Position numbers and translations under genes: made by a program. The notes under the pieces are model-generated. The model was not told the DNA's origin. It did not search any database and saw only the letters and a list, made by a program, of their open reading frames with translations. From Candidatus Saccharimonadota bacterium (GTDB taxonomy: Archaea; Nanohalarchaeota; Nanosalinia; Nanosalinales; Nanosalinaceae), in NCBI RefSeq assembly GCF_029232205.1, contig NZ_CP107255.1, positions 990,001 through 1,022,000 of the forward strand: a stretch of DNA of 32,000 nucleotides. Reading direction: 5' to 3'. Shown in pieces: positions 1 to 32,000 of the stretch (positions are counted from its first letter, which is position 1; every line of letters begins with the position of its first letter).

Positions 1-193
1 TGAGTTCCTTGATTCTGGATCCTCCTCGTCCGATTACGAGGCCTGGTCTCTGTGCGTAGATTACGATTTTTGCTGATGTCGGTGTTCTGACTAGGTCGGC
101 GTGGCTGTATCCTGCGCCTTCTAGTTCTTCTTCTAGGAACTCGTGTAGTCTTACTTTACGGGCTCCTTTCTGAATGAATTTTTTCTCTTGCAT
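1..193 (-). CDS. rps3: 30S ribosomal protein uS3, N-terminal part (cut by window edge)
   Basis: My reverse-complement translation from ATG at 193-191 gives MQEKKFIQKGARKVRLHEFLEEELEGAGYSHADLVRTPTSAKIVIYAQRPGLVIGRGGSRIKEL. The KH-domain GRGG motif is typical of uS3. GAGGTGGT Shine-Dalgarno lies 6 nt upstream. Position after rpl22 matches the conserved operon order. Confidence 0.9.
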   Translation of the reverse strand, partial: MQEKKFIQKGARKVRLHEFLEEELEGAGYSHADLVRTPTSAKIVIYAQRPGLVIGRGGSRIKEL

Positions 194-248
194 TCAAAGA
201 CCACCTCGGTCTTTTGCATGCTCAGAAAATCTTTGATTTTCGCTCATA

Positions 249-659
249 TTATCGCTCTCCTACGATTATTTTTACGTGTGCGGCTTTTGTTTCTCCAGGA
301 TGTCTTCCTGGTGTTCTCATTTCGCGGCCTTTGTTTGTGATGATGTTCTGGACTTCTAGTGCTCCTGGGTTGAGGCCTTCGTGTTCTGCGTTTGATGCTG
401 CAGATCTGAGGACTTCCAGGATTTCTTTTGAGGCTTTTTCCGGGTATCTTCCGGAGTCGCCGTGTCCGCTTCTGTGGCCGACGTCTGAGTTGAATTTTGT
501 GTATGGGACTGCTAGGTCTTTCTCGATTACTTTTTCGAGTTTTCTTTCTGCTTTTTCTACGGAGTCGCCTTTGATGAAGCGTCCGATTTCTGTGCAGTCT
601 TTCCATGATACGGGCATGTTTCGGCCCTGTGCCATTGCTTGGTGTGCGTCGAGTTCCAT
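249..659 (-). CDS. rpl22: 50S ribosomal protein uL22
   Basis: 136-aa ORF with archaeal L22 character (ARGRNMPVS-like start, KFNSDVGHR). It sits between rps19 and rps3 as in the archaeal S10-like operon. Confidence 0.93.
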   Translation of the reverse strand: MELDAHQAMAQGRNMPVSWKDCTEIGRFIKGDSVEKAERKLEKVIEKDLAVPYTKFNSDVGHRSGHGDSGRYPEKASKEILEVLRSAASNAEHEGLNPGALEVQNIITNKGREMRTPGRHPGETKAAHVKIIVGER

Positions 660-668
660 GCTAGATCA

Positions 669-1052
669 CTACTTGAGTGGGATGTGTTTGGACGAACGTG
701 TTGCACCAAGTCCTGGTGCGCTGTGTTCGACTTCTTTTCGGGTTCTTGCGAATTCTCCGAGGTAGTGGCCGAGCATTTCTGGCGCGATTTCTACTTCGAT
801 GAATCTTTGTCCGTTGTAGACTTCGATGGTTTTTCCGACCATCTGTGGTACTACGATCATTCCTCTTCTGTGGGTTTTGGCTCTGTCTTTTTCCTCGAGT
901 GTTTCGAGGATTTTTTCTTCCTCTTCTCTTAGGCCTCTTTGAATCTTTCTGCGGCCTCTTGAGTTGAGGAGGTCGGCGAACTCTTCTAGTTCCATGTCTT
1001 TGAGTTCGTCGAGTGTTTTTCCTCTGAATGTGAATTCGTCTTGTTCTGCCAT
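669..1052 (-). CDS. rps19: 30S ribosomal protein uS19
   Basis: 127-aa ORF with [25 protein letters not shown] and [12 protein letters not shown], the classic uS19 core. Operon position is between rpl2 and rpl22. Confidence 0.95.
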
Positions 1053-1063
1053 GTTTGGTCACC

Positions 1064-1765
1064 TTACTGCTTCTTCTTTCCGCTGCGGCTTGCAGCGATG
1101 TTTCCAACTTTACGCCCTGGTGATGCGTGTCTGGAAACTGTCTTTGCCTTTCCTGGTTTTGCTGATCCACCGAATGGGTGGTCTACTGCGTTCATTGCTA
1201 CGCCGGATACCTTTGGATATGCTTTGCCTCTGGCTTTCATTGCCTTGGACTTGTTTCCGGCCTTTACGAATGGTTTCTCCTTTCTTCCGCCGCCTGCTAC
1301 TTTTCCTACTGTTGCACGGCATTGTGTATTCAGTTTCTTGAATTCTCCACTTGGAAGTTTTACTCTTACTCCGTCTTTTTCGTGTGTTACTACGAATGCG
1401 TATGTTCCTGAACTTCTGGCGATGTGGCCGCCGTCGTTTGGCTGTAGTTCTAGGTTGTGGATTGGTACTCCTTCTGGGAGTTCTCCTAGTGGTAGTGTGT
1501 TTCCTGGTTTTACTTCTGCGGATACTCCTAGTTCTATTTCGTCTCCTACTGCCAGGCCTTCTGGTGCTAGAATGTTTCTTTGTTCTCCGTCTTCGTATTC
1601 TACTACTGCGACTGGAGATGTTCTGCCTGGGTCGTGGATTAGGTCTACTACTGTTCCTTTTGTTTCTGCTCTTTTGGTTTCTACGTCTCCTTTGCTTTTG
1701 TGTGAGTTGGATTGGTAGTTTGGAGATCCTTTTCCTCTTCTTTGTTGTCTTAGTGGGCTTCCCAT
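1064..1765 (-). CDS. rpl2: 50S ribosomal protein uL2
   Basis: 233-aa ORF with IHDPGRTSPVA, GNTLPLGELPEGVPIHNLE and AMNAVDHPFGGS, which are conserved uL2 motifs. Confidence 0.97.
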   Translation of the reverse strand: MGSPLRQQRRGKGSPNYQSNSHKSKGDVETKRAETKGTVVDLIHDPGRTSPVAVVEYEDGEQRNILAPEGLAVGDEIELGVSAEVKPGNTLPLGELPEGVPIHNLELQPNDGGHIARSSGTYAFVVTHEKDGVRVKLPSGEFKKLNTQCRATVGKVAGGGRKEKPFVKAGNKSKAMKARGKAYPKVSGVAMNAVDHPFGGSAKPGKAKTVSRHASPGRKVGNIAASRSGKKKQ

Positions 1766-1766
1766 C

Positions 1767-2048
1767 TTACATCATACCTAGTTCGGTTGCGACGTCCATT
1801 GCGGAGTCGGTTTCTGAGAGTTTTACGTAGGCCTTTTTCTCGGCGTTTGGCGTGATGTTTGTGTTTACGTTTGTGACTGTAACATCGAACAGTGTTTCTA
1901 CTGCGTCTTCTACCTGGTTCTTGTTTGCATCGAGGTTGACCATTAGGACTAGTTTGTTTTCTTCGTCGATCATGTCCATTGCTTGTTCGGTCATGTGTGG
2001 GTTCTCGATGATTTTCCAGGCTTTGTCGTCTTCCATTTTGTGATTCAC
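1767..2048 (-). CDS. rpl23: 50S ribosomal protein uL23
   Basis: 93-aa ORF abutting rpl2 (stop 1767-1769, rpl2 start 1765). Size, position and the KAYVKL-type C-terminus fit uL23. Confidence 0.88.
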   Translation of the reverse strand: MNHKMEDDKAWKIIENPHMTEQAMDMIDEENKLVLMVNLDANKNQVEDAVETLFDVTVTNVNTNITPNAEKKAYVKLSETDSAMDVATELGMM

Positions 2049-2051
2049 CTT

Positions 2052-2810
2052 TTATTGGAAAAGTTCCTCTTCTTCAAGTTTTTCCAGTGCTTTTTCGCTC
2101 CATACTGTTAGCCGTCCTGGCTCTGCTCCTGGAGCTAGTTTTTCTGCGTTGAGCTGGTCTACTAGTGATACTTCTACGCCTGCTAGGTTGCTTCCTGCGT
2201 TTTTGATTCCTTCGTCTTCGGCGACTACTACTAGTGGACCTGATTTTCTGACGTATTTTCGGCCTCTGTTCTTTCCTTTTCCTGCTCTTACTTTCTTCTG
2301 TTTGACTCTTTCTAGTTCTTCTTCTAGGCCTAGGTCTTCGAGTTTTTCTTTGAGGTCCTGTGTCTTTTCGATTTCTTCAAGACCGTCTTCTACTAGAGGG
2401 ACTTCTCCGTCGTATGCGTGTTTCTCTGTGACAAGGCTTTGGTCTGCTGTTGCTGCGATTGCACTCCTGATTGCTTTTCTTCTTTCCTTGTCGTTGATTT
2501 CTTCTTCGAAGTCTTTCTCTGCTTTTGGAGGGTGAGCTCTGCGTCCGCCTCTTGTGTTCGGTGCTTCTGCTCCTTCTCCGTAGATCTGCATTCCTCTGCG
2601 GACTGTGATCTTACGTGGTACTCGGGACATTCCCTTTCCTTTCTGGCCTCTGTAAGCGTTCTGGCGTTTCTTCCAGTAGGTAACGTGCTTGTTACCTGCT
2701 TCTGGGTCTGCGCCGTAGGCCTGTCTTTTCTTGGATTTGATTGAGAGAGTTGCTCTCTTGACGAGGTCGTCTCTCACTCTTTCCGTAAACTGAATTGGTA
2801 GATCTGTCAT
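2052..2810 (-). CDS. rpl4: 50S ribosomal protein uL4
   Basis: 252-aa ORF with AHPPKAEKD, NDKERRKAIRSAIAATA, RAGKGKNRGRKY and APGAEPGRLTVWSE, all typical of archaeal L4. Confidence 0.92.
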   Translation of the reverse strand: MTDLPIQFTERVRDDLVKRATLSIKSKKRQAYGADPEAGNKHVTYWKKRQNAYRGQKGKGMSRVPRKITVRRGMQIYGEGAEAPNTRGGRRAHPPKAEKDFEEEINDKERRKAIRSAIAATADQSLVTEKHAYDGEVPLVEDGLEEIEKTQDLKEKLEDLGLEEELERVKQKKVRAGKGKNRGRKYVRKSGPLVVVAEDEGIKNAGSNLAGVEVSLVDQLNAEKLAPGAEPGRLTVWSEKALEKLEEEELFQ

Positions 2811-2823
2811 TGTTTTTCACCCT

Positions 2824-3795
2824 CTATTGGTCGATGTAAGTTATTTCTGGTGTTCCTGGTTTTCCGTCTTCTCTCATTGCTGTTCGCAGCCTGATCAGTC
2901 TTTCTGATGGGCCTGGTACTGAGCCTTTGATTATGATGTAGTTGGACTGGACTTCTCCGTATCCGTTGAAGCCTCCGTCTCTCTGTACGTCTTCCGGGTC
3001 TTCTCCGTGTGCGAGGATTCTCTTGTTTACTTCTGTTCTGTTGTTGAATCCTTGCTGGCCTGGCAGTGGTACTTTCCATGAAAGTGTGTCAGGGTGCCAT
3101 GGGCCTACGTTTCCGGCTTTTCTTCGTTTCTTCTGTGTTTTGTGGCCGAGTTTCTTGATTCCGTATCTTTGTACTGGGCCTTCCATTCCTTTTCCTTTGG
3201 TTACTGCTACTACGTCTGAGTATTCTCCTTCTTCGAATACCTGGTCGAATTCGATCTGTTTTCCGATCATTTCTTCTGCGTATTCAAGCTGATCTTCTAC
3301 GTCGCCTCCGATTCCTACTTCGAAGTTCTCTGCTGTCTTCTTGCTGAGTCCGGCCTGTCCTGGCTGTGTGTGGACTAGCAGTCTGACGTCGGTTATTTTG
3401 TCGGAGTTTTCTTTTGCTTTCTCCAGGTTTTCCATGTTTCCTTCTTTTGGTACGTCTACTGCTCTCTGCAGTTCTGGTGCTGGAGATTCTGTCCAGGCCT
3501 CTGTAAATACGTTTTTGCCTGTGTTGACATCTTGTGTGTAGAAGCGGGCTCCATATACTCTGAGCGGTGGTGCTTCTAGTATTGTTACTGCTTCTGCTAC
3601 TTCCTGTCCCTGTGTTGCTCCTTCTGTGTCGTCGATCATCATGACTCTGGACATTCCTACTTTGTAGCCTGCGAAGCCTAGTGGTTTTAGTTCGTCTGTT
3701 TCTTCCCAGTTGTCTATGTCTGGGTATATTCTTTCTGCTCGGACCTTTGGCTTGAATCCCAGGGATCCGCTTCTTGATCTATTTTTCTTTGGCAT
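2824..3795 (-). CDS. rpl3: 50S ribosomal protein uL3
   Basis: 323-aa ORF with GSLGFKPKVRA, FAGYKVGMS and TKGKGMEGPVQRYG, the archaeal L3 signature. First gene of the operon. Confidence 0.95.
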   Translation of the reverse strand: MPKKNRSRSGSLGFKPKVRAERIYPDIDNWEETDELKPLGFAGYKVGMSRVMMIDDTEGATQGQEVAEAVTILEAPPLRVYGARFYTQDVNTGKNVFTEAWTESPAPELQRAVDVPKEGNMENLEKAKENSDKITDVRLLVHTQPGQAGLSKKTAENFEVGIGGDVEDQLEYAEEMIGKQIEFDQVFEEGEYSDVVAVTKGKGMEGPVQRYGIKKLGHKTQKKRRKAGNVGPWHPDTLSWKVPLPGQQGFNNRTEVNKRILAHGEDPEDVQRDGGFNGYGEVQSNYIIIKGSVPGPSERLIRLRTAMREDGKPGTPEITYIDQ

Positions 3796-3996
3796 TGTTT
3801 GGTTTCAACTCCAATAGGCCTCTCATGTTACTAGAGGCATTGGTTAAACTGTACCTAGCTATGGCTAGGTGGTAAATTATTTGTCACCAGAGGCCTCCCC
3901 TACAAGTGAAGGCTTGTCCTCTCAAAGAAAATCTCCGAGAGGTATAACTGAAAACAGAAGACAAATTTTATAAATGGGTTGACTTGTCGAGGCCTT
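3796..3996 (-). promoter_or_regulatory. Long structured leader and promoter region upstream of rpl3
   Basis: 201-nt non-coding gap. Palindromic TATA-like TTTTATAAAT at 3966-3975. Perfect 6-bp hairpins at 3818-3838 (GCCTCT/AGAGGC), 3854-3869 (CCTAGC/GCTAGG) and 3918-3942 (CCTCTC/GAGAGG). Three AGGCCT copies at 3816, 3891 and 3990. Confidence 0.45.
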
Positions 3997-4350
3997 TTAT
4001 TCGAAGTAGTTGCGTACTTTTTCCCGGAATTCATCGCTCATGTCGTCGATTTGAAGGAGTATTTCGTTTCTGCCGTATTTTTCTTTGAGTTCTTCCAGTG
4101 CCTCCTCGAGTTCTGCGTTTAGTTCTTCGCCCTCTCTTAGAAGGTCGGAGTAGTATCTGAGAATGTACATGTCGAGCACTGTTTTGACATGCTCCTGGAA
4201 TTCGTCGTCGAGGTGGTCGGCCATTTCAAGGATTTCTCCCCTGGAATAGTCCTCGAAGAGATCATCTATTTCATCCTCTATCTCTTCCTCTATCTCTGAT
4301 ACGTCTTTGTCCGTTTCCTCAAACTGTCTTTCTAGATCTTCAAAGGCCAT
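3997..4350 (-). CDS. Hypothetical highly acidic protein (117 aa)
   Basis: Clean ORF immediately downstream of rtcB on the same strand. Composition is Asp/Glu-rich helical. I recognise no family. Confidence 0.55.
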   Translation of the reverse strand: MAFEDLERQFEETDKDVSEIEEEIEDEIDDLFEDYSRGEILEMADHLDDEFQEHVKTVLDMYILRYYSDLLREGEELNAELEEALEELKEKYGRNEILLQIDDMSDEFREKVRNYFE

Positions 4351-4375
4351 ACTAGGTGATTGTTCTGTGATTTAT

Positions 4376-5794
4376 TTATCCTTTGATGTTGACTACAGGC
4401 CTCATTTTGGCTACCTTGTTGCCGATTCCGAGGGCGTCGCTGACCTTGATTACTTCGTCGATGTCCTTGTAGACTCCTGGGGCCTCCTCTGCGATTGTTG
4501 AACCCGAGGCTGCTTTGACAAATATCTGGTCTCTTTTGAGTTCTTTCTGTACGTCTTCTCCCCAGTAATCCTGCTTGGCCTGTGTTCGTGACATCAGCCT
4601 TCCTGCTCCGTGTGCTGTTGAGCCAAAGCTTATTTCCAGTGATTCCTGTCCTCCGGAAAGAATGTAGCTTGCTGTTCCCATGCTCCCCGGGATTAGTACG
4701 GGTTGGCCTACGTCTCTGTAAACTTCTGGGACTTCAGGCCTTCCTGCTGGCATTGCTCTTGTTGCTCCTTTTCTGTGGACGAGTAGTTCTTTGTCCTCGC
4801 CGTCTACGTTGTGTGTTTCTTCTTTGGCGATGTTGTGGCATACGTCATAGAGAAGTTCTGTCTCCACTTCTTCGTAGATGGTACTGAGGCATTCTCTGAC
4901 TCCCTGTGTGATGGCCTGACGGTTGGCCCATGCGTAGTTTGCTGCTGCGTACATGGCCTCTTTGTAGTCCTGTGCGAGTTCGTCCTGCATCGGCGCGTAG
5001 ATCAGTTCCTTGTCCGGTATTTCTTCCACGATTTCAGGATAGTTTTTCTCGAACTTTCTAAGATAATTAGTACAGGTCTGGTGGCCGAGGCCTCTGCTTC
5101 CGGAGTGGATCATGACTACCACCTGGTCTTCTTCCAGTCCATATGCCTCTGCCTTCTGGTCGTTGTAGATTTCTCCTACTCTCTGGATTTCGAGAAAATG
5201 GTTTCCTGACCCCAGGGAGCCTACCTGGTTGAGGCCTCTTTTTTTGGCGTCTTCAGGTATTTTTTCGGGGTTGCCTGGTAGTCGGCCTTCTTCTTCGCAT
5301 CTTTTGATGTCGCTTTCCTTGGCGTGGCCGTTTTCCAGCATCCATTCCGCTCCTTTTTCAAGTATTTCTTCCAGATCTTCTTCATCGGTGTTGATGTATC
5401 CTCCTTTTCCAAGGCCGCAAGGTATTTTGTTGTATAGAATGTTTGCAAGCTGCTGCTCTTGCCCTCTAATATCTTCGTACTTAAGATCTGTCTTGAGTAC
5501 TCTGATGCCGCAGTTGATGTCGTAGCCGATTCCTCCTGGGCTTATTACGCCGTTTTCTTTGTTTACTGCTGCCACGCCTCCGATTGGGAATCCGTATCCC
5601 TGGTGGCCGTCTGGCATGACGATTGAGTATTTTTCGAGGCCTGGTAGTGTTGCTACGTTTTTGATCTGTTTGAGTGTGTCGTCCTGTCTGATTTCTTTAA
5701 GAAGATCTTCATTGGCGTAGACTCTGGCCGGTTTTTTCATCTGGCCTTCCTGTGGTATTTCGTAGATGTTTTCGGATATTTTGTTGAGTTCCAT
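4376..5794 (-). CDS. rtcB: RNA-splicing ligase RtcB
   Basis: Contains MPDGHQGYGFPIGG, GYDINCG, GSGNHF, HSGSRGLGHQ and STAHGAGR, the canonical RtcB metal and GMP-His motifs. I chose the start at ATG 5794 (MELNKISENIYEIP). The tracked start at 5857 would overlap the archease gene. Confidence 0.95.
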   Translation of the reverse strand: MELNKISENIYEIPQEGQMKKPARVYANEDLLKEIRQDDTLKQIKNVATLPGLEKYSIVMPDGHQGYGFPIGGVAAVNKENGVISPGGIGYDINCGIRVLKTDLKYEDIRGQEQQLANILYNKIPCGLGKGGYINTDEEDLEEILEKGAEWMLENGHAKESDIKRCEEEGRLPGNPEKIPEDAKKRGLNQVGSLGSGNHFLEIQRVGEIYNDQKAEAYGLEEDQVVVMIHSGSRGLGHQTCTNYLRKFEKNYPEIVEEIPDKELIYAPMQDELAQDYKEAMYAAANYAWANRQAITQGVRECLSTIYEEVETELLYDVCHNIAKEETHNVDGEDKELLVHRKGATRAMPAGRPEVPEVYRDVGQPVLIPGSMGTASYILSGGQESLEISFGSTAHGAGRLMSRTQAKQDYWGEDVQKELKRDQIFVKAASGSTIAEEAPGVYKDIDEVIKVSDALGIGNKVAKMRPVVNIKG

Positions 5795-5826
5795 ATGTAG
5801 AAAGTTTCTGTAAACTCTTTTTACAG

Positions 5827-6237
5827 TTATATGTCGAGGACTACCTGAAGTCTCCATTTTCCTTCTTCGAATGTGACTTCCATTTCGCTGTATGTGGGGC
5901 CTTTGACGTCCATTACGCTCATTGAGTTTTCTATGTTGTCGGCCCAGATCTTTGCTGTCAGTCTGTATCCGTCTTCAAGATCTTCTATTTCGAGGTCTTC
6001 TGCGTATGAGATTACGACGTTGTCGACGTCCTGTAGGAAGATGAGTTTATCCATGAAGTCGAATAGTAGTGCTTCCTGACTTTCAGATTCTACCTCTATA
6101 CTGTAGTATGTCTGGCCGTTGAAGCCTCCGACTATTTCAGAGAAAGCCTTTACTGCTTCTGAGAATGCTTCTTCCAGCGAGTCTCCTGAGGCCTGGAATT
6201 TTTCATCGGCAGTGTGTTCAAGTATTTCGTAGCTCAT
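5827..6237 (-). CDS. Archease (RtcB activator)
   Basis: 136-aa ORF starting MSYEILEHTADEKF. The EHTAD motif and size are typical of archease. It lies immediately upstream of rtcB, a well-known pairing. Confidence 0.88.
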   Translation of the reverse strand: MSYEILEHTADEKFQASGDSLEEAFSEAVKAFSEIVGGFNGQTYYSIEVESESQEALLFDFMDKLIFLQDVDNVVISYAEDLEIEDLEDGYRLTAKIWADNIENSMSVMDVKGPTYSEMEVTFEEGKWRLQVVLDI

Positions 6238-6276
6238 AACCAGTATTTCCTGTGATATTATAGGTTTCTTTCGGGT

Positions 6277-6846
6277 TTAAAGTCGCTGTTCGAGGTAGGC
6301 CTCAATTACCTTTCTCTGTTCCTCTATTCCGAGTTCTGTGTTGTCGAGTACCAGGTCGTAGATTTCCTTGTCTTCTACGTCTATGTCATAGTATCGGATG
6401 TATCTGTCTCTATTGTCGCTATCTCTTTTCTGTATTCTTTCGAGTGCTTCTTCCTGTGAGATTTCTTCTCTTTCTGCAACTCTCGATGCTCTTTCTTCGA
6501 GGCCTGCTGTAATGTATATTTTTACGTCTGCGTAGCTGCCCAGCACCCATGAGGATAGTCTTGATTCTACTACGCAGTCTTTCTGTAGGGCTTTGTTGAG
6601 TGTTCTGCGGTCTACTTCGAGGTCTGTTTCCTTGTCTGCTTTTTCTGATAGTTCTACTACTGTCATGTCGCGGTCTGCGGCTATGCTTCTGAAGAAGTCT
6701 CCTGCGGAGTAGTGTACGATATCCAGTTTTTCTGCTACCTGTGCGGCGAGTGTTCCTTTTCCTGCGCCCGATGGGCCGTTGATGCAGATAATTAGGTCAG
6801 AATTTTTGTCGCGGTCACCTTCGAATTCGCGAATGAAGCTCTCCAT
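6277..6846 (-). CDS. cmk: Cytidylate (CMP) kinase, archaeal type
   Basis: P-loop INGPSGAGKGT near the N-terminus. The 189-aa size and YSAGDFFR match archaeal Cmk. Confidence 0.8.
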   Translation of the reverse strand: MESFIREFEGDRDKNSDLIICINGPSGAGKGTLAAQVAEKLDIVHYSAGDFFRSIAADRDMTVVELSEKADKETDLEVDRRTLNKALQKDCVVESRLSSWVLGSYADVKIYITAGLEERASRVAEREEISQEEALERIQKRDSDNRDRYIRYYDIDVEDKEIYDLVLDNTELGIEEQRKVIEAYLEQRL

Positions 6847-6912
6847 AATTCAGTATTGAAGGTAGGAATTAAAACTGTGAAGCAAGTTTGAGATGAGAAA
6901 GATAAGTGGGGT

Positions 6913-6987
6913 CGCGGAGCGCGGGATTTGAACCCGCGTCTTCACCGTGACAGGGTGAAATGATGGGCCAGACTACACCAGCTCCGC
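6913..6987 (-). tRNA. tRNA-Asp (anticodon GUC)
   Basis: The minus strand reads GCGGAGCTGGTGTAGTCTGGCCCATCATTTCACCCTGTCACGGTGAAGACGCGGGTTCAAATCCCGCGCTCCGCG. Acceptor stem is GCGGAGC/GCTCCGC, anticodon loop is CTGTCAC and T arm is GCGGG-TTCAAAT-CCCGC. CCA is not encoded. Confidence 0.9.
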
Positions 6988-7010
6988 TTGTGAAAAATGT
7001 GTTGGCAGGG

Positions 7011-7023
7011 AATTTTTTTAAAC
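7011..7023 (-). promoter_or_regulatory. TATA-like box for tRNA-Asp
   Basis: The minus strand reads GTTTAAAAAAATT, centred about 30 nt upstream of the tRNA 5' end at 6987. Confidence 0.4.
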
Positions 7024-24536: not shown

Positions 24537-24573
24537 ATAGAGAAATTTCTGTTAGGCTAGTAATAAAAATATA

Positions 24574-25088: not shown

Positions 25089-25091
25089 CCT

Positions 25092-25991
25092 TTATTCGAC
25101 CTCTATATGTCCTTTTCTTGCGGCGTGAAAGATATATTCCTGGGCATAACCAGAGTACTCGCCGAAGTGTTCTCTCATGTTTTCAGATAGTTGATCGTAT
25201 TTATCAGCGTAGAGATCCTCAAAATGACTTTTCAAGGCCTTATCTGCCCACGTATCGATTGGGTAGGCCTCGTAGAATCCTAGAGAGAAGAGAAGTACGC
25301 AGTCCGCTACTTTGTCTCCTACGCCGTACAGTTTCTTCATTTCTTCGCGGGCCTCGACGTACTCCATTTCTCCGACTTCTTCAGCTTCAAAGCTTTCTTC
25401 CTCCAGAATTTTGAGAGTTTCTACTATGTATTTTGCTCTGTAACCTGTTCCCAGTTCTCTGAGTTCTTCTTCAGAGGCCTGTGAAAGTTCTTCCCTAGTA
25501 GGGAATCTTAGTAGTTCTTTTCCATTGATTTCTCTTGTTTCGCCGTATTTTCTGGCGATTTCGTTGTGCATTTTCTTGATTCGTGGTATTCTCATCTGTG
25601 GCGAAAGCAGATAGGAGATAAGACATGGGAAGAATTCGTCCTGTACAATTCTGAGGCCCCAGAGATATTCTTTTGCCTCTGAAAGTTTCTGATTTTCCGG
25701 AAATGTCTGGAAGATGTCTTCCAGATCGTGATGTATTCCGAGGGCCTCTTCTACTTCTTCTCTTGGCAGTTCTGTTTCTACAATTATTTCGTTGTCTTTT
25801 TCCTCTACTATTATCGGTTTCTTGTTTCTGAATGTGTAGAACCGGGAATTCTTTTCGGATTCAGAAGATTCTTGGTCTTCGGATGCTTCTTCGTAGAGTT
25901 TGCCGTTTACTCGATGCCAGCAGAATGTCTGGCCACAGGTCATTGTCTGTTCCAGGTCGAAGTCTTCCGCCGGTATCGAGAATTTTTGCAT
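25092..25991 (-). CDS. ogg: 8-oxoguanine DNA glycosylase/AP lyase (OGG, HhH-GPD family)
   Basis: OGG_N-like TMTCGQTFCW. HhH-GPD LYGVGDKVADCVLLF carries the catalytic Lys context, followed by YPIDTW (Asp). Confidence 0.85.
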   Translation of the reverse strand: MQKFSIPAEDFDLEQTMTCGQTFCWHRVNGKLYEEASEDQESSESEKNSRFYTFRNKKPIIVEEKDNEIIVETELPREEVEEALGIHHDLEDIFQTFPENQKLSEAKEYLWGLRIVQDEFFPCLISYLLSPQMRIPRIKKMHNEIARKYGETREINGKELLRFPTREELSQASEEELRELGTGYRAKYIVETLKILEEESFEAEEVGEMEYVEAREEMKKLYGVGDKVADCVLLFSLGFYEAYPIDTWADKALKSHFEDLYADKYDQLSENMREHFGEYSGYAQEYIFHAARKGHIEVE

Positions 25992-26018
25992 GGAATATCT
26001 AGTGGTGAGAAAGAGTTT

Positions 26019-26213
26019 TTAGTCCGAGTCCTTCTTCGAGTACTTGAAGAATCCTGTACCTTTTTCCTCGTCGTAGTCGTCGCTCTTGTCTTTGGTCTTC
26101 TTTGCATCTCTTTTCAGGTAGCTGCGGCCGCATTGGTGGCATTTTACTCTTTTCTGGGCCTTGCTTCGCTGTTTGTAGCCGCAGTCCGGGCACTGGTAGA
26201 AGACCTTTGACAT
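26019..26213 (-). CDS. Small zinc-ribbon protein with Lys-rich/acidic tail
   Basis: CPDCG ... CHQCG are two CxxC knuckles in 64 aa. The gene lies between the DUF123 and ogg genes. Confidence 0.6.
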   Translation of the reverse strand: MSKVFYQCPDCGYKQRSKAQKRVKCHQCGRSYLKRDAKKTKDKSDDYDEEKGTGFFKYSKKDSD

Positions 26214-26215
26214 GT

Positions 26216-26590
26216 TTATTTCTCCTTTGCTGAATGTGTTAAGCTCTTCGGTATTTTGAACAGATGTGAGTTTTTACTGGAGTCGGAGGCCCCGAATTCC
26301 GGTACCGGTTCTGCTATTTTCTCCATGATGGAGGCCATGATTTGTTCGTATTCCGAGGTTTCCGGCAGTATGAAGTAGTCGTAGGTTGAGGCCTTTTCTG
26401 TGAGGTAGTCTATGTGCCAGTGTAGTTTTTTGTCGCTGGAGAAGTGTCTTTGCAGTCTTTTTTCGACTGAGTTCTGTGCTGATCCGATGTATGCATAGTG
26501 GCCTTTGGAGAATTTTATTTGGCCTAGAGCTCCTACTTCGATTTCTCTGTCTTTTTCTAACTCTATGAAAAGCATGTAGACTCCTTTCAT
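26216..26590 (-). CDS. DUF123 / GIY-YIG-superfamily nuclease-like protein
   Basis: GVYMLFIEL, GHYAYIGSA, RLQRHFS and KKLHWHIDYL match the DUF123 signature. I prefer ATG 26590 to the tracked TTG 26608. Confidence 0.75.
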   Translation of the reverse strand: MKGVYMLFIELEKDREIEVGALGQIKFSKGHYAYIGSAQNSVEKRLQRHFSSDKKLHWHIDYLTEKASTYDYFILPETSEYEQIMASIMEKIAEPVPEFGASDSSKNSHLFKIPKSLTHSAKEK

Positions 26591-26631
26591 CACTGCACGT
26601 TTTAACAAATTGGCTGCGAGTTTTTAGTATT

Positions 26632-26919
26632 ATGAGATCGGAGCTGCGTGATGGTCTTATCTACGGTCTTTTTCTTGCAGGCCTGACTTTTCTGACTGTG
26701 AAGGTTCTCGGTTTCAATCCTGCTTCTCTTACTGTTCTGCTGTATCTTAACGTGTTGATGGGGTTAGTGATCAATCTCAGGTCTGAGAATCTGGGTCTCG
26801 AATCTGTTTTCGGCCAGTTGATGGTTGCCGTTGAAGGAGAAGAGCAGAAGGTTAAGAGAGTTTTTACCGGCGAAGAGTATGTTTTGAACGGCACGATGGA
26901 GAAGATTGAGGAGAATTAG
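26632..26919 (+). CDS. Small membrane protein (95 aa)
   Basis: Two hydrophobic helices followed by an acidic tail. Confidence 0.5.
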   Translation: MRSELRDGLIYGLFLAGLTFLTVKVLGFNPASLTVLLYLNVLMGLVINLRSENLGLESVFGQLMVAVEGEEQKVKRVFTGEEYVLNGTMEKIEEN

Positions 26920-27701
26920 CTGTAGGTTATCTCCGCGTATTTCAGGCCTTCATCTGTGTAGACTGTTAGTTTTCCTGAGTCGCTGTACAGTGTCATGCCT
27001 GTTTCGTATACCGCGTCGACATTCATAGGGCCTTCTCCCGTGTAGAAGCTGTAGGTCTGACCTGGCTCTATTTTCACTTCTTTTATGTTGTAGCTATCGC
27101 TGTAGCTTGGTGATGCACTGTGTAGTCGCCAGCCTGAAAGATCTACTGCTTTCTCGGCCTTGTTGGTTATGTTTACGTATTCCTGTTCGCCTTCGACTAT
27201 ATCGAATTCTAGTTCTGGTAGTTCTGATCTTATGGCCTTTGTCTCGCGTTTTTCTAGCTCTTTTACTTTGTTATGTATTTTTTCTTTGATGTCGGCCCTG
27301 ATTTTTTCTACTTTTGTTCTGTTGAGGCCTTCAAATTTTTCGAATCTTCTTCCTTTTCTTACTCCTGTTGTTAGTGTTCCGTAGGGTGTTGTTATTCTTT
27401 CTTTTCTCATGGATGCGTTGGATAAAGTGATTTTGAGAGTGGCTCGCGGCGTTCTGTACTTCGTTACCTGTTTCTCCGGGCTTTCTGTTTTCTGTATCGT
27501 GTAATCTGTTGTTTTCATCTCCGAGTTTCTTGTTGCGTTGGAGAATTCCAGGCCGAACGTGGATCCGAATTTTCCTTCTTCATTTATTTGGAAGAATTTA
27601 TTTGATTGAGAGCTTATTTGGACTGTTTCTGCAGCTGCCGGAATAGATATTACAAGCGTGATAAGTAGTGCTGTGATTATAGAGTCTCTTTTGAGGCCCA
27701 C
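26916..27701 (-). CDS. Secreted or membrane-anchored protein with C-terminal lamin-tail domain (LTD)
   Basis: N-terminal signal/anchor ITALLITLVISIPAAA. The C-terminal EYVNITNKAEKAVDLSGWRL ... IEPGQTYSFYTGEG ... DSGKLTVYTDEG matches the LTD pattern (EfVEl.N ... vdLsGW.L). Confidence 0.7.
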   Translation of the reverse strand: MGLKRDSIITALLITLVISIPAAAETVQISSQSNKFFQINEEGKFGSTFGLEFSNATRNSEMKTTDYTIQKTESPEKQVTKYRTPRATLKITLSNASMRKERITTPYGTLTTGVRKGRRFEKFEGLNRTKVEKIRADIKEKIHNKVKELEKRETKAIRSELPELEFDIVEGEQEYVNITNKAEKAVDLSGWRLHSASPSYSDSYNIKEVKIEPGQTYSFYTGEGPMNVDAVYETGMTLYSDSGKLTVYTDEGLKYAEITYS

Positions 27702-27741
27702 TTTACCTAAAAGTAAAAATAGAGGATTTTTTAAGTCTGGC

Positions 27742-28743
27742 CTAGAGTTCGCTGTAGTTGTTGTTGAATACTACCAGAGTTGATCTGAGAACCCCCAGGA
27801 CTATTGGGCCCAGGAAGAGGCCTGCTGCTCCGAATAGGTATACTCCGCCAAGCACTCCGATAATTATTACTGCAGGATGGAGTTCTGCGGATTTATCTAC
27901 GACTATCGGCCGGAGGAAGTTGTCTGTGAGGCCTACTACTACCAGTCCATAGGCGAATAGTATCATTCCTTCGAATACGTGGTCGATCATTATGAGGTAT
28001 ACTGCTGCAGGCCCCCAGATGAGGAAGGATCCTACTATCGGTAGGAATGCCAGGATTGTCATGACGAATGTCCAGAAGTACGGGTTTGGTACTCCTGTGG
28101 CGTAGAGGCCTATTCCTGCGACGAGTCCCTGTGCGATGGCGACGAGTACGTGGCCTTTGACTACGGCCCACGTGGTTTTGTTTGTTCTTTCCAGCAGGCT
28201 ATCCTGGATGTCGTGTGGTAGCGGGAATACGTCTTTCATCCATTCTATGAGTTTGTCGCCGTCTTTGATGAAGTAGTAGAGAAGGAAGAGCATCAGTGAG
28301 ACTCCTATAGCAAGATTTGCGATTACGTTGAATATTTGGGATACGTTTCCAAAGGATATTGTTGAGAATTTTCTGATTATTTCTCTGACATTTTGTTCTA
28401 CATTTAGATCTTCTCCTGTTATCTGTTCAAGCCTCGAGTCTATTCGGGAGAGATCAATTGTTTCAAGATCCCCTATTCTGGCTGATAGATCCTGTGCATC
28501 GTCAACTACCACGCTTGCTGCCAGAACCATAGGTACGATCGCGAGAAATATCGCCAGAAATACCAGAAATCCTGCGCTAGCAACCTGGCCTGTCATTGGA
28601 GCTATTCTTTTGTGGAGAGGCCTTAGAACAAACGCAAGTATTGCAGCTCCGGCAATGTACGGCAAAAATGGTTTCACCATTAGGCCTGCGATCGCGCCTA
28701 CGACTGCTATTAGAAGAAGTAAGAAGCCTCTCTTTTCATTCAT
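27742..28743 (-). CDS. AI-2E family transporter (PerM/UPF0118)
   Basis: 333-aa polytopic membrane protein with the DNFLRPIVV motif and the typical topology. Confidence 0.85.
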   Translation of the reverse strand: MNEKRGFLLLLIAVVGAIAGLMVKPFLPYIAGAAILAFVLRPLHKRIAPMTGQVASAGFLVFLAIFLAIVPMVLAASVVVDDAQDLSARIGDLETIDLSRIDSRLEQITGEDLNVEQNVREIIRKFSTISFGNVSQIFNVIANLAIGVSLMLFLLYYFIKDGDKLIEWMKDVFPLPHDIQDSLLERTNKTTWAVVKGHVLVAIAQGLVAGIGLYATGVPNPYFWTFVMTILAFLPIVGSFLIWGPAAVYLIMIDHVFEGMILFAYGLVVVGLTDNFLRPIVVDKSAELHPAVIIIGVLGGVYLFGAAGLFLGPIVLGVLRSTLVVFNNNYSEL

Positions 28744-28766: not shown

Positions 28767-29957
28767 TTACATAATTACTCCGGTTCCAGCAAACATAAGC
28801 AGGGCTGGAATTATCAGCACCGACATTACTACAGCATTCTGATCATGTGTTCTGGCGGCAAATCCTATTGCTGAGGCTGTTGCGAGAACCAGTAGACCAG
28901 GAAGGCCTGTAAACAGGCAGGTTATAGAGATGAGAAGTAGAAGTGTTGCGGCCGTTACCTTTCTGTAGTCTATTTTCTGGATTATGTCAACGTAGCTGTA
29001 GGATACTTTCAGACAGATGAAGTAGGATAAAATTGCCGAGATCAGGGCCACTGCAGTCATTTTAAGCATCAGGCCTTCTGAAATTTCTGTCAGCTGGTTT
29101 ATGGCAACTGATGCCCCACTCCTTGGAGAACCTATAATATAGAGTGCCAGCAGAGAAGTTACGATGTCGGAAGAGTTGACTCCACCAAGCGCGGTGATGA
29201 AGTCATCCTTTTTTCTTGAGATAGGTGTCAAGAACGTTGTGGAGATCGCTGGGCCTATCCCGGGTACTATCCCTGCAATCAGGCCTGCTAGCGCACCAAT
29301 CACCCCCGAGAAGTAGGTTGTATCTGTTTCAAATTCTCTTTCTTGTTCAGGTAGTTCTGTGTCTTCTCTGATTGCTGTTGTCATGGCTGGTACTGCGAAG
29401 AGACCTGTGAATACCGGTATGAGTACAAAGTTCTGGTTGACAGGCAGGTTGAATGAGTAGATTCCGAGCAGGCCTGATGCCGCCGCCAGCTGAAGTGATT
29501 TTGCTATGTCTTCCGTGTTGATTACTGCAAATATCAGGAAGAAGAATAGTATGTAGAACATGTGCGGGCTTATAATCGAGTAGACTGTTTCAAGGCCTAG
29601 AAGGAGTACTGGTGAGAGGATCAGTATGAATATTATTGCTGTGAGGCCTCCTTTTGCTGTTTTCTGGAATGCTTTGAGGCCTTTTCCATTTTTTACTGCT
29701 TTTGCTCCCGGTATTGTGGAGAGTGCTGTAGTTGCGTTTGGGGCGTGAAGAAATATTGCCGGTAGGAAGTCGTGGAATGTGTGGGAGACCGAGATTGAGA
29801 TGATAAATGCTAGATAGATTGTGAGGCCTATTGACGATTGCAGATAGTATGGCAGGCTTATGAATACTACTGTGTTGGGGTGTATTCCTGGTGTAAGGCC
29901 TGTTATTGTTCCTGCTAGTGTTCCTAGTATAATTATTGGTATTATTTCTGGGCCGAT
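28767..29957 (-). CDS. DUF112 / TctA-like membrane protein; 5' end lacks any canonical start codon
   Basis: The tracked ORF starts at ATG 29561. The same frame stays open up to the TAG at 30033-30035. It encodes IGPEIIPIIILGTLAGTITGLTPGIHPNTVV...SHTFHDFLPAIFLHAPNATTALSTIPGAKAV, typical of DUF112 N-termini. There is no in-frame ATG, GTG or TTG between 29562 and 30032. I place the provisional start at ATC 29957. Confidence 0.65.
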   Translation of the reverse strand: MGPEIIPIIILGTLAGTITGLTPGIHPNTVVFISLPYYLQSSIGLTIYLAFIISISVSHTFHDFLPAIFLHAPNATTALSTIPGAKAVKNGKGLKAFQKTAKGGLTAIIFILILSPVLLLGLETVYSIISPHMFYILFFFLIFAVINTEDIAKSLQLAAASGLLGIYSFNLPVNQNFVLIPVFTGLFAVPAMTTAIREDTELPEQEREFETDTTYFSGVIGALAGLIAGIVPGIGPAISTTFLTPISRKKDDFITALGGVNSSDIVTSLLALYIIGSPRSGASVAINQLTEISEGLMLKMTAVALISAILSYFICLKVSYSYVDIIQKIDYRKVTAATLLLLISITCLFTGLPGLLVLATASAIGFAARTHDQNAVVMSVLIIPALLMFAGTGVIM

Positions 29958-29982
29958 GTTTGTGTTTGATCGGGCAAGTGGA

Positions 29983-29988
29983 TTTAAA
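29983..29988. promoter_or_regulatory. Shared palindromic TTTAAA box between divergent NAC and DUF112 genes
   Basis: 22 nt to ATG 30011 on the plus strand and 25 nt to ATC 29957 on the minus strand. Confidence 0.45.
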
Positions 29989-30010
29989 GTGCAGGGTGTA
30001 ATGTTTGGGT

Positions 30011-30319
30011 ATGTTTGGCGGACAGGATATGTCTAAGATGATGAAGCAGATGGGCATGGATATGGAAGAGATCGATGCCGATCGCGTAGTAGTAGAAATC
30101 GGAGATAAGAAAATGGTTTTTGAGAACCCTCAGCTCTCCAAGATATCGGTTCAGGGCCAGGATATGTTCCAGCTTCAGGGAGATTACTCTGAAGAGGAAG
30201 ATGTCAGCGGCGAGGACGTGCAGCTGGTTATGGAGAAGACCGGTGCTTCCGAGGAAGAAGCGAAGAAGGCCTTGGAAGATAATGACGATGTTGCAGGCGC
30301 AGTAATGGACCTGCAGTAA
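30011..30319 (+). CDS. nac: Nascent polypeptide-associated complex protein (archaeal NAC alpha, with UBA domain)
   Basis: MFGGQDMSKMMKQMGMDMEEIDA, the NAC domain VVVEIGDKKMVFENPQLSKISVQGQDMFQL, and the C-terminal UBA VQLVMEKTGASEEEAKKALEDNDDVAGAV. Confidence 0.9.
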   Translation: MFGGQDMSKMMKQMGMDMEEIDADRVVVEIGDKKMVFENPQLSKISVQGQDMFQLQGDYSEEEDVSGEDVQLVMEKTGASEEEAKKALEDNDDVAGAVMDLQ

Positions 30320-30348
30320 TTTCTACTTCTCAAATTTTTTCTCTAATT

Positions 30349-31998
30349 TTACTTTTCCTTCTCAATGTACTCCACGTATTTGGAGTATGCAGGCCTTGTG
30401 ACTGTGATTCCGATCAGGATTCCGAGGATTGTTGTTGCTGCGAATCCGTGGATTGTCTGAAGTGCTGCGCTGGATGGGCCTACTGCTGAGGTTACTATTG
30501 ATACTGCTAGCGCCATGCTTCCGATTGCTACGAAGCTGTAGTTTGTTCTTCTGCTGTAGAATGCGTAGCCTATGAGGCTGGCACCCGCGATTCCGATCAG
30601 TATGCTTGCTGTTCCTGCGCTTAGGATTGGGAACATTGCTCCGATTGTTGAGGCTGCGGATGTGAAGATTACGAAGAATGCTCTCTTCATTCTTTCTGAG
30701 ACGCTTCTTACCTGTTCTTTACCAGATTCGTCCGTAATAATAATCTGGTCGTCGACTCCCGTACCTACCGCGGCGATAATTCCAGCGATTGCGGACAGGC
30801 TGATGCTGCCTAGCTGTGTGAACCAGCTCCAGAATCCGAAGAGGATGTAGACTTCCGAGGCCCCTGTCAGAACGATTGGAAGTGCGTATCTTATGTCGTC
30901 ATATCTTACGAAGACCAGCAGGCCTACAGCTACTAGCGATCCTATAATTGCAAGGATTGAGGCCAGCATGAACTGCGATCCCAGTGCTGCTGATATACGG
31001 GACACGCTTTCGATCTGTACAGGCACAGGCAGTTTACCTGATTTGAGTATTGTTTGAAGTTCTCTGGCGTTGTCACGGGCCTCTGATGGGCTTGCTCCTG
31101 TTGCTGAGATGGAGGATCTTGTGCTGTAAGGTTCTTCTCCGAGGCCTGATGCTACTGTTAGTGCATTTCTTAGTTCGCCGTCGACGTAAAGTCTTAGTCT
31201 TGCTGGGCTGCCGTCGTCAAGCTGTAGCTGTGAGTTTTCGCTTGTAATAGATGGCAGGTAGTTGCTGAAGATTAGGCCTGTGTCCATTGCTGCTTCTTTT
31301 TCTAGCTGGATTGGGAAGCTTGTTCTGAACTGGCTTCCTGATCCTCTTGTTCTTCTTTCGTTCCAGTTGACTGAGAGGATGTCTTCTCCGTTGTATGCTA
31401 TTACTTCAAGTCTGCTGACGTCTTCCGTCGAGTTCTCATAGAAGAATGTTGTTTCAGCTGCTGTGAATCTGTCTTCTGGCTGGAAGACTCCTATCTGGTT
31501 GAGGTTGCCGTTTGTTACTCTGCTTACTGTTACGTTCGAGCCTTGTTTCTGGAAGTTGAGCTGTGTTTCGTTCTGATAGTTTACTGTCAGATTCTTTGAG
31601 TCTCCGACGTTAAGTGGCATTCGGGCCTCGAAGCTTCCTTGCTGGCTGATAAGTTCTCGTAGCTTGGTCTGGTTAGTATTTGCTGTCTGGAGCTGTATCT
31701 TGTACTGGCCGTCTCCCAGGTCGACTACTCTGACCTGTGCATCTCCCAGATCGGAGCTTGCTATTCTCAGGCCTAGCACGTCTTTAACGTCTGTTGCCAC
31801 GCTCTGTAGTTCCTGGCCTGTGGCGTTGGTCTGTGGTGTGAGGAGCATTCTTGTTCCTCCGGAGAACTGGATTCCTGTTCTATCCTCCAGCTGCGTGGTC
31901 ATTACTACGTCTCCGTTCCTATTTTCGTATGATGGGCCTATCCACAGTGTTGAGATTCCGAGTGCTAGAAGTAGTACCCAGATTCTCCATTCTTTCAT
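30349..31998 (-). CDS. secD: Protein-export membrane protein SecD
   Basis: N-terminal TM, a large periplasmic-type domain, then six TMs with AAVGTGVDDQIIITDE typical of archaeal SecD. The TCATGA at the start suggests an ATGA overlap with an upstream gene (probably secF) outside the window. Confidence 0.82.
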   Translation of the reverse strand: MKEWRIWVLLLALGISTLWIGPSYENRNGDVVMTTQLEDRTGIQFSGGTRMLLTPQTNATGQELQSVATDVKDVLGLRIASSDLGDAQVRVVDLGDGQYKIQLQTANTNQTKLRELISQQGSFEARMPLNVGDSKNLTVNYQNETQLNFQKQGSNVTVSRVTNGNLNQIGVFQPEDRFTAAETTFFYENSTEDVSRLEVIAYNGEDILSVNWNERRTRGSGSQFRTSFPIQLEKEAAMDTGLIFSNYLPSITSENSQLQLDDGSPARLRLYVDGELRNALTVASGLGEEPYSTRSSISATGASPSEARDNARELQTILKSGKLPVPVQIESVSRISAALGSQFMLASILAIIGSLVAVGLLVFVRYDDIRYALPIVLTGASEVYILFGFWSWFTQLGSISLSAIAGIIAAVGTGVDDQIIITDESGKEQVRSVSERMKRAFFVIFTSAASTIGAMFPILSAGTASILIGIAGASLIGYAFYSRRTNYSFVAIGSMALAVSIVTSAVGPSSAALQTIHGFAATTILGILIGITVTRPAYSKYVEYIEKEK

Positions 31999-32000
31999 GA

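Follow-up and report, generated by a model that had tools for sequence, protein, structure and literature searches.

AGGCCT is a highly iterated palindrome of certain Nanohaloarchaeota lineages

Cyanobacteria have been known for about 30 years to contain highly iterated palindromes (HIPs), yet no mechanism or function for them has found acceptance. HIP1 (GCGATCGC) is a short, GC-rich palindrome and the most over-represented word of its genome. It lies inside and between genes in any reading frame, is conserved above background and has been lost in some lineages (PMC5861425, PMC4390886). Its function is unknown (PMC5861425, PMC4390886), and a periodicity of 10–90 kb has been reported for it (PMC5861425). 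Here we describe a word that resembles HIP1 in composition, rank, location, conservation and patchy loss. This word, the hexamer AGGCCT, was studied in a 32,000-nt stretch of contig NZ_CP107255.1 (positions 990,001 to 1,022,000; hereafter the window) and in related genomes, and we show that certain lineages of Nanohaloarchaeota carry it as a HIP-type "highly iterated palindrome". Nanohaloarchaea are DPANN ectosymbionts of haloarchaea.

A sequence-only reading of the window had likened AGGCCT to HIP1. This comparison is the right one, as rank, size of the excess, independence of frame, conservation and the placement of deviations at outer positions all agree. The two words differ in that AGGCCT has 6 nt instead of 8, lacks a GATC/CGATCG core and resides in a DPANN archaeon. 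Its density of 3,000–5,000 per Mb is higher than the approximately 500–2,500 per Mb reported for HIPs, and its fold excess (about 12–20-fold versus 15–300-fold) is lower because the baseline of a hexamer is higher. Like AGGCCT, the alternate HIP of Calothrix PCC 7103, GGCGCC, is a palindromic hexamer with an observed/expected ratio (O/E) of about 15, a sporadic occurrence in lineages and one-base deviations that are concentrated at the outer positions (PMC4390886). Whereas alternate HIPs occur in single genomes, many lineages in two clades have AGGCCT in common, and losses are nested among them. Alternate HIPs are proposed to originate from a cognate methyltransferase and methyl-directed repair (PMC4390886). 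The matching methyltransferase gene was identified in those cases, whereas we propose the AGGCCT factor by analogy. Our literature search found nothing that links AGGCCT to nanohaloarchaea, and no archaeal iterated palindrome.

The window contains exactly 96 copies of AGGCCT (about 95 had been estimated by eye), or one per 333 bp. They start at the following positions:

Sites 1–24: 39, 373, 931, 1554, 1829, 2326, 2717, 3495, 3816, 3891, 3990, 4397, 4736, 5088, 5232, 5637, 6189, 6297, 6500, 7346, 7672, 8129, 8251, 8348
Sites 25–48: 8780, 9152, 9211, 9274, 10381, 11089, 11844, 11926, 12094, 12203, 12370, 13010, 13234, 13258, 13415, 13855, 14009, 14132, 15044, 15152, 15980, 16969, 17142, 18038
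Sites 49–72: 18320, 18787, 18819, 18859, 18898, 19461, 19591, 19856, 19899, 20456, 21336, 21680, 22276, 22517, 22661, 23137, 23216, 23287, 24105, 24132, 24842, 25235, 25265, 25475
Sites 73–96: 26389, 26679, 26944, 27325, 27818, 27929, 28106, 28618, 28682, 28903, 29071, 29281, 29470, 29593, 29644, 29677, 29824, 29896, 30267, 30391, 30920, 31142, 31274, 31769

This makes AGGCCT the most frequent of all 4,096 hexamers in a sequence of 45.5% G+C. The second hexamer, TTCTTC, occurs 85 times, and the runner-up among palindromic hexamers has 22 copies. Base composition predicts 6.0 copies, and Markov models of order 1, 2, 3 and 4 predict 7.6, 21.7, 47.9 and 85.4, respectively. One hundred dinucleotide-preserving shuffles of the window yielded 7.31 ± 2.58 copies with a maximum of 14. 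Measured against the order-1 model, the O/E of AGGCCT is 12.6 in the window and 8–20 in 23 related loci. The one-mismatch words TGGCCT, GGGCCT, CGGCCT and AGGCCG, which had been described as rarer, are present in 28, 28, 11 and 18 copies. The sequence-only reading had also stated that equal enrichment of many unrelated GC-rich hexamers would point to a generic effect of composition. No such general excess of GC-rich words is seen, and the words that lead by order-1 excess all overlap AGGCCT (GAGGCC, GGCCTT etc.). The excess is real, large and specific to the word, which stands as a single outlier among the hexamers.

We considered whether base composition, codon usage, amino-acid content or copies of a repeat element could have produced this excess as a by-product. 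Several-fold excesses over the order-1 expectation are also seen for codon-pair words such as TACTAC, and the maximal-order (order-4) Markov ratio for AGGCCT is only 1.12, a value that would formally refute the claim of the sequence-only reading. This ratio is uninformative because the model is built from AGGCC and GGCCT, both of which are inflated by AGGCCT itself. In enriched genomes, the nested sub-words GGC, GCC, GGCC, AGGCC and GGCCT reach 1.05–1.83 times the value expected from their own maximal-order models, whereas in controls the ratio is about 1. This accounts for the order-4 result and reveals that the model is blind to an excess of this kind. The codon-shuffle check proposed by the same reading gave a ratio far from 1. 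When codons were permuted inside each gene, leaving the protein and the per-gene codon usage unchanged, 1000 synonymous shuffles gave 17.7 ± 3.5 coding copies (maximum 29) versus 86 in the real genes (z = 19). The shuffled expectation errs on the conservative side, since codons recruited by AGGCCT are already part of the pool. Among all hexamers AGGCCT has the highest z in the synonymous shuffle, and the runners-up all overlap it. Moreover, spacers are 5.7-fold richer in AGGCCT than control spacers, the word occurs in all three phases and on both strands, its flanks lack similarity, and close relatives with equal GC content and the same proteins are without the excess (locus L054 has 0.27 sites per kb at 46% GC). 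The by-product explanation is refuted by these data, and we give it practically no credence.

The reading frame has little bearing on where the word is found. Of the 96 copies, 49 take the form xxA GGC CTx (X-Gly-Leu), 27 the form xAG GCC Txx and 10 the form AGG CCT (Arg-Pro), while the other 10 fall outside called genes. All three phases meet in a single phosphoglucomutase-family gene (17616–18926), as the sequence-only reading had reported, and its four examples of non-coding copies are also located outside called genes:

18819–18824, plus strand: phase 0, AGG CCT = Arg-Pro, phosphoglucomutase-family gene
18787–18792, plus strand: phase 1, AAG GCC TTG = Lys-Ala-Leu, same gene
18038–18043, plus strand: phase 2, GGA GGC CTT = Gly-Gly-Leu, same gene
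3816–3995, no strand assigned: three sites (3816, 3891 and 3990) in the 200-bp spacer upstream of the gene for ribosomal protein L3 (2824–3795, minus strand)
19461–19466, no strand assigned: intergenic site between 19384 and 19566

Together with the synonymous-shuffle result, these counts bear out the earlier claim that AGGCCT occurs on both strands and is not explained by codon usage. In 302 kb from non-redundant enriched loci, genes have 3.49 sites per kb. Short spacers (20–250 bp) carry 2.72 sites per kb in enriched loci versus 0.48 per kb in non-enriched relatives, and the AGGCCT profile is flat across start and stop codons. Enrichment is thus independent of reading frame, strand and coding status, which supports a DNA-level signal rather than codon usage. 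In the 96 window sites and in about 1,050 pooled sites, no conservation was found beyond the hexamer. The flanks have background composition, with a weak avoidance of A immediately outside the motif. The sites are therefore not copies of a repeat element, and dispersed elements of the REP or MITE type, for which shared sequence beyond the core and defined ends would be expected, were rejected. Within the 32 kb, gap lengths follow a near-exponential distribution that includes the expected long tail, except that gaps shorter than about 50 bp are too few. This distribution lends no support to regular spacing or to selection for even coverage.

The strength of the pressure becomes apparent at permissive positions, where a choice among synonymous codons is enough to write AGGCCT without altering the encoded protein. 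The window fills 86 of its 130 permissive positions (66%). The 23 enriched loci show a very similar occupancy (1,113 of 1,730; 64%), whereas only 82 of 1,019 positions (8%) are filled in 24 non-enriched nanohaloarchaeal loci. Arg-Pro is written AGG CCT in 10 of 14 cases in the window, although AGG makes up 45 of 482 Arg codons (9%). X-Gly-Leu positions are filled in 49 of 66 cases, and [K/E/Q]-Ala-[F/L/S/Y/C/W] positions in 27 of 50. The dipeptides themselves are also shifted. Arg-Pro has an O/E of 1.57 in enriched versus 0.76 in non-enriched loci (p = 1e-9), and Gly-Leu of 1.40 versus 0.96 (p = 9e-17), whereas the reversed dipeptides Pro-Arg and Leu-Gly are equal in both groups. AGGCCT pressure therefore alters proteins too. 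Near-duplicate enriched loci were dropped from the pooled dipeptide, density, profile and interference tests, and were kept in the 64% occupancy count and in the codon counts at permissive positions given below.

To describe the distribution of the trait, we used the RtcB neighbourhoods of 80 species-representative genomes and the phosphoglucomutase neighbourhoods of 31 metagenome contigs, each relative being represented by a 4–21-kb locus (±10 kb around the chosen genes). The RtcB gene of the window is as follows:

4376–5857, minus strand: RtcB tRNA-ligase gene (Pfam RtcB), with sites at 4397, 4736, 5088, 5232 and 5637

Its product is 93–94% identical to RtcB of 'Candidatus Nanohaloarchaea archaeon M3_22', which places the window in a nanohaloarchaeon, and a 13.9-kb Logan contig of the same organism as the window differs from it by one base. 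The phosphoglucomutase scan revealed no relative above 70% protein identity and 12 further enriched contigs. The trait is bimodal, as about two dozen nanohaloarchaeal loci have 2.5–5.1 sites per kb and most others have at most 0.9 per kb. Enriched loci include those of SG9 (CP012986.1), Ca. Nanosalina VS9-1 (NZ_CP180230.1), NHA29 and many brine contigs, and M3_22 (CP046106.1) is counted among the enriched genomes. NHA25 (JALDAJ01), LC1Nh, SVXNc and the metagenome-assembled genomes (MAGs) of L054 and L052 are examples of non-enriched relatives. Intermediate values were obtained for L002 (1.6 per kb), L019 (1.2 per kb) and L037 (1.0 per kb). Halobacteria, whose members host nanohaloarchaea, have 0–0.2 sites per kb.

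In the RtcB tree, the enriched loci form two groups, and the non-enriched loci L015, L054 and L032 are nested in one of them, which implies both gains and losses of the trait. The enriched locus L005 shares 2 of 21 aligned sites with its closer, non-enriched relative L054. With L004, which is enriched but more distant, it shares 30 of 53. The comparison of L005 with L054 gives no ground for claiming that sites were actively removed from L054, as four-fold degenerate sites are nearly saturated between the two. Within RtcB, the same codon positions are filled in up to 11 other nanohaloarchaeal lineages of both clades, and positions 1455, 620, 709 and 764 are common to 8–11 loci. Such sharing across both groups is expected if the pressure fills whatever positions a conserved protein offers.

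Once present, sites are retained. Between the window and M3_22 (84% DNA identity), 13 of 19 aligned sites are intact versus 7.7 expected from all hexamers. The corresponding values are 9 of 9 versus 3.9 for the window and L003, and 9 of 9 versus 5.0 for L002 and L003, each of these tests resting on 9–19 sites. All five sites of the window's RtcB gene are kept in M3_22, as are sites 3816 and 3891 of the L3 spacer in the L002 alignment, whereas 3990 is not. Even enriched pairs whose four-fold degenerate sites are saturated still share 42–57% of aligned sites. This is about what independent filling of common permissive positions would give, and the pressure is therefore still acting.

Mobile DNA presents the opposite picture. 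In many nanohaloarchaea, a ~470-aa intein (Pfam Intein_splicing/Hint) splits RtcB after residue ~102–114:

L030, 5673–8519: RtcB gene with intein
L043, 5047–7890: RtcB gene with intein
L038, L040, L046 and L053: RtcB gene likewise with intein

In two enriched genomes, 10 of 13 permissive positions are filled in the exteins versus 1 of 9 in the inteins (one-sided hypergeometric p ~0.004; the inteins are also lower in G+C). As the intein is transcribed and translated with its host gene, an expression-level cause of AGGCCT is disfavoured. In line with this pattern, three large surface-protein genes of M3_22 (L002:1–7898; Laminin_G_3 and carbohydrate-binding-like domains) contain 3 copies of AGGCCT in 7.9 kb versus about 2.5 per kb in the adjoining housekeeping genes. 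These large genes for secreted or surface proteins may be recently acquired or fast-evolving. Among the matches listed for IMG/VR contigs with three close AGGCCT copies, we found tandem repeats and GC-rich contigs and could recognise no nanohaloarchaeal virus. In these genomes, the density of AGGCCT thus separates resident DNA from recently acquired DNA such as inteins and surface-protein genes.

A lineage-specific word that is found in coding and non-coding DNA and is rarer in recently acquired DNA is reminiscent of the DNA uptake sequences (DUS) of Neisseria and the uptake signal sequences (USS) of Pasteurellaceae, which are thought to spread by transmission bias (PMC1939737). By the same logic, fragments bearing AGGCCT could be preferentially imported or recombined between cells without any benefit to the cell. 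Such a drive would favour the whole motif over everything else, as is seen here, and would leave it scarce in mobile or foreign DNA, a pattern known for uptake sequences (PMC1939737). However, known uptake words are 9–12-nt, non-palindromic cores with flank preferences, occur about once per kb and often form inverted pairs in terminators. AGGCCT is a 6-nt palindrome with 3–5 sites per kb and a flat profile at gene ends. A hexamer also offers little discrimination, natural transformation is not known in Nanohaloarchaeota, and the interference between sites at a scale of 30 bp that is described below is unexpected for a signal needed once per fragment. We thus regard a drive by uptake or recombination as quite improbable.

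The alternatives that AGGCCT displaces are informative about its cause. The sequence-only reading had proposed, as one possible cause, that a StuI-type C5-methyltransferase is coupled to a repair of T:G mismatches of the very-short-patch type. In such a drive, a Vsr- or Mig-like activity would convert AGGTCT/AGACCT into AGGCCT. AGGCCT is a known restriction-modification (R-M) specificity (PMC12128166). The paradigm for such a drive is Dcm/Vsr of E. coli (CCWGG), where, as in the explanation we favour below, repair tied to a methylated palindrome shifts word frequencies genome-wide. GGCC methylation is paired with a T:G glycosylase in Methanothermobacter. Dcm/Vsr predicts a modest excess and depletion of the T-neighbours only, whereas AGGCCT shows a 12–20-fold excess with all alternatives suppressed. 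The depletion of AGGTCT/AGACCT that the proposal called for is not observed genome-wide (O/E 1.13), nor is that of AAGCCT/AGGCTT (1.05). Since positions fixed by the protein dilute such genome-wide counts, we replaced them by analyses of permissive positions split by phase. For A-GGN-CT, the codons GGC, GGT, GGA and GGG are used 523, 62, 38 and 14 times in enriched loci versus 36, 77, 111 and 28 times in controls. Relative to the motif, GGA is suppressed approximately 42-fold and GGT approximately 18-fold, so that the alternative outside the reach of a T:G drive is the more strongly suppressed. Suppression at the neighbouring C is 27-fold for GCA, 23-fold for GCT and 46-fold for GCG. One-mismatch neighbours that are synonymously convertible fall to 0.34–0.79 of the shuffle expectation for each of the six motif positions. 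Depletion at the outer A and T, which are among them, cannot be produced by T:G repair. Finally, a drive from T to C alone pools at most four AG[GA][CT]CT words, and a 12–20-fold excess with those words at normal levels would be impossible.

Because every synonymous alternative at every position of the motif is suppressed, we reject T:G repair as the main cause and consider it very unlikely. One detail fits a methylated inner C: among the residual alternatives, AGGTCT is 2.35-fold over-represented (p = 0.0008), whereas the outer C shows no such effect. This small relative excess is a weak hint that the inner C of AGGCCT is hypermutable.

Deviations that the protein enforces reveal how the word may be read. 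One-mismatch neighbours locked by the protein stand at 0.9–2.6-fold of expectation, with the highest value (2.6-fold) at the outer positions 1 and 6. Outer variants (NGGCCT/AGGCCN) have an O/E of 1.9–2.4 and inner variants of 0.9–1.35. This bias towards the outer positions is pronounced in the window's lineage but slight in SG9-type genomes. The window contains 269 copies of GGCC versus 68 expected, and an excess of GGCC is also present in M3_22, L003 and L082/L083. About a third of GGCC copies are AGGCCT in the window's lineage versus ~70% in SG9-type genomes, the extra copies in the former being mostly AGGCCN/NGGCCT in places where the sixth base is ruled out by the protein. This indicates graded recognition around a GGCC core.

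Some relatives show the reverse with respect to GGCC. The tetramer is nearly absent from L089 (0 versus 16.3 expected), L023 of the Halorutilales (3 versus 52), L042 (0 versus 18.7) and L075 (0 versus 7.2), which suggests HaeIII-type restriction pressure.

Taken together, these observations show a DNA-level fixation bias that favours the exact hexamer over all else. It acts at each of the six positions, whatever the frame or strand, and also in spacers. The odds of AGGCCT are raised approximately 20–40-fold at permissive positions and 6–14-fold in spacers. If read as an equilibrium of mutation, selection and drift, or of biased conversion, this would correspond to a scaled advantage of about 2–3.5. 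AGGCCT builds up slowly in resident DNA, is retained once present, reshapes the use of dipeptides and is absent from newly arrived mobile DNA. The bias may be imposed by a lineage-specific protein that can be gained and lost and that would read AGGCCT with a strict GGCC core and softer outer A/T. This protein would most probably be a DNA methyltransferase of the StuI/HaeIII type. Methylated sites could then either bias mismatch correction towards the site-bearing strand, as in Elhai's ratchet, or be selected for their density. We favour a methyltransferase because every alternate cyanobacterial HIP came with its cognate methyltransferase (PMC4390886), because AGGCCT and GGCC are common methyltransferase specificities (PMC12128166, PMC10609329) and because the patchy gain and loss of the trait resembles that of R-M genes. 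StuI-type R-M systems, such as that of Alcanivorax borkumensis (AgGCcT; PMC12128166), recognise the same word and represent a plausible class of reader. However, active restriction targets are normally avoided, whereas AGGCCT is enriched 12–20-fold and driven towards saturation in enriched lineages. The data are compatible with per-site selection, with a strand-biased repair ratchet at a methylated site (PMC4390886) and with a bias in uptake or recombination. That the bias is imposed by a lineage-specific AGGCCT-recognising protein, most probably a methyltransferase, is a proposal that we trust and doubt in equal measure.

Several points weigh against this proposal. Pfam searches of 30 window proteins identified no encoded methyltransferase, endonuclease or other candidate for binding AGGCCT. 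A regular-expression screen for C5 and N4/N6 methyltransferase motifs was likewise negative for the 969 predicted proteins of 47 nanohaloarchaeal loci; its sole match, SPPF in a PPDK_N-like protein, is due to chance. The only nanohaloarchaeal methylome that our search found, that of the cultivated Ca. Nanohalococcus occultus, features GDGCHC and not AGGCCT (PMC10266531, PMC11001535), in a species that may or may not be enriched. The RtcB tree on which gains and losses are based is a single-protein neighbour-joining tree without support values, and the spacer statistics rest on gene calls made with our own open reading frame (ORF) and codon-score heuristic. Per-site selection and a conversion or repair bias cannot be separated by these data. 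In addition, negative interference between sites is confined to less than 30 bp, whereas methyl-directed repair in E. coli has a range of approximately 1 kb. Permissive pairs less than 30 nt apart are both filled in 28 of 124 cases versus 56.8 expected, with no interference beyond 60 nt. A protein footprint therefore fits this observation better than methyl-directed repair does, and keeps a binding protein in play.

AGGCCT could accordingly be the operator-like site of an abundant dimeric DNA-binding protein, either nucleoid-associated and architectural or a loader for segregation or repair, which would act independently of methylation and for which selection would maintain about one site per 200–350 bp. 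Such a protein would account for the exact palindromy of the word, whose core is strict and whose outer bases are softer, for conserved sites and for their uniform distribution with indifference to gene features. The interference below 30 nt and the deficit of gaps below 50 bp would reflect a footprint of about 30 bp that renders close neighbours redundant, and Xu et al. read HIP1 as a signal of nucleoid structure (PMC5861425). However, neither the window nor the 47 loci yielded a candidate protein, and the otherwise near-exponential spacing shows neither a deficit of long gaps nor a regular array. Thousands of near-redundant sites would need a very large effective population, which is doubtful in an obligate ectosymbiont, and a trait that close relatives gain and lose so patchily is more typically tied to mobile R-M or methyltransferase genes than to core chromatin proteins. 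On balance, a methylation-independent binding site is a less likely explanation than a methyltransferase, though a serious one.

We also raise, tentatively and with more doubt than conviction, the possibility that AGGCCT is a functional chromosome-wide mark for which one part of the Nanohaloarchaeota has a dedicated reader protein. Such a mark could work as a methylated signal for self-DNA or strand discrimination, or as the binding site of a sequence-specific nucleoid protein whose footprint is about 30 bp. If this were true, the mark may help these ectosymbionts to distinguish or manage their own DNA while sharing cytoplasm with an AGGCCT-poor host (0.05–0.2 sites per kb).

Whatever its cause, an independent archaeal case means that iterated palindromes are no peculiarity of cyanobacteria. 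Two-thirds of synonymous opportunities are filled, the dipeptide content is shifted, and the genomes are small (~1 Mb), several of them complete. As sister lineages have lost the trait or never had it, comparative genomics could plausibly identify the factor, and a presence/absence comparison of close relatives with and without AGGCCT enrichment that are available as complete genomes could find the gene and give a first mechanistic handle on iterated palindromes. In practical terms, AGGCCT is a strong signal for binning and taxonomy in hypersaline metagenomes, and it must be allowed for in analyses of codon usage and selection in these organisms.

Two further genes of the window are as follows:

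28767–29957, minus strand: TctA-family transporter gene (profile match starts at position 130)
30029–30319, plus strand: NAC gene (translation)

Five sites (29593, 29644, 29677, 29824 and 29896) are located in the 5' third of the TctA gene (29562–29957), and in the true frame all are phase 2 (X-Gly-Leu). In a spurious overlapping ORF (29590–30057) the same five would look like Arg-Pro. The TctA ORF (28767–30008, minus strand) is open for approximately 150 codons upstream of its first ATG/GTG/TTG (29561), and this stretch encodes the N-terminal third that the profile match lacks. The start of the gene is therefore either non-canonical or located upstream of a sequencing error or frameshift.

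The gene content of the window further comprises a cluster of ribosomal proteins, RtcB together with archease, diphthamide synthase, enzymes of sugar-nucleotide metabolism, the phosphoglucomutase, kinases for thymidine and cytidylate, transporters and two tRNAs. Its sole DNA-repair gene (25092–25991, minus strand) encodes an OGG-type 8-oxoguanine DNA glycosylase (OGG_N and HhH-GPD), which is not of the MutY/Mig T:G type. The phosphoglucomutase-family gene contains a 32-nt direct repeat (18036–18067 and 18896–18927; 91% identical, 860 nt apart). Both copies start with GGAGGCCT. The stop codon marks the end of the second, and the first, if translated in the other frame, would yield the same C-terminal peptide (EALRILR...) and then a stop. 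At 17628–17630, in a short run of A, Logan contig L001 has one A fewer, which cuts the phosphoglucomutase call to 349 aa. This is probably an assembly or homopolymer error, the alternative being a real frameshift variant.

Runs of six A's seem to be avoided in the coding sequence of the window, where AAAAAA occurs 24 times versus 59.6 in the synonymous shuffle (z = –4.9) despite abundant Lys AAA. GTA-rich words (TACTAC is GTAGTA on the coding strand) exceed their order-1 expectation several-fold. The AT skew of positions 1–13000 and 23000–28000 is very strong and falls to –0.55, since the minus strand carries most genes and coding strands are rich in purines and A (GAAGAA-type words, acidic proteome). 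Among the relatives, the 129,637-bp contig of L046 (JBLGBK010000001.1), titled 'MAG: Colwellia polaris', carries a nanohaloarchaeal RtcB with intein that clusters with the nanohaloarchaeal locus L028; the contig or MAG looks mislabelled or mis-binned.

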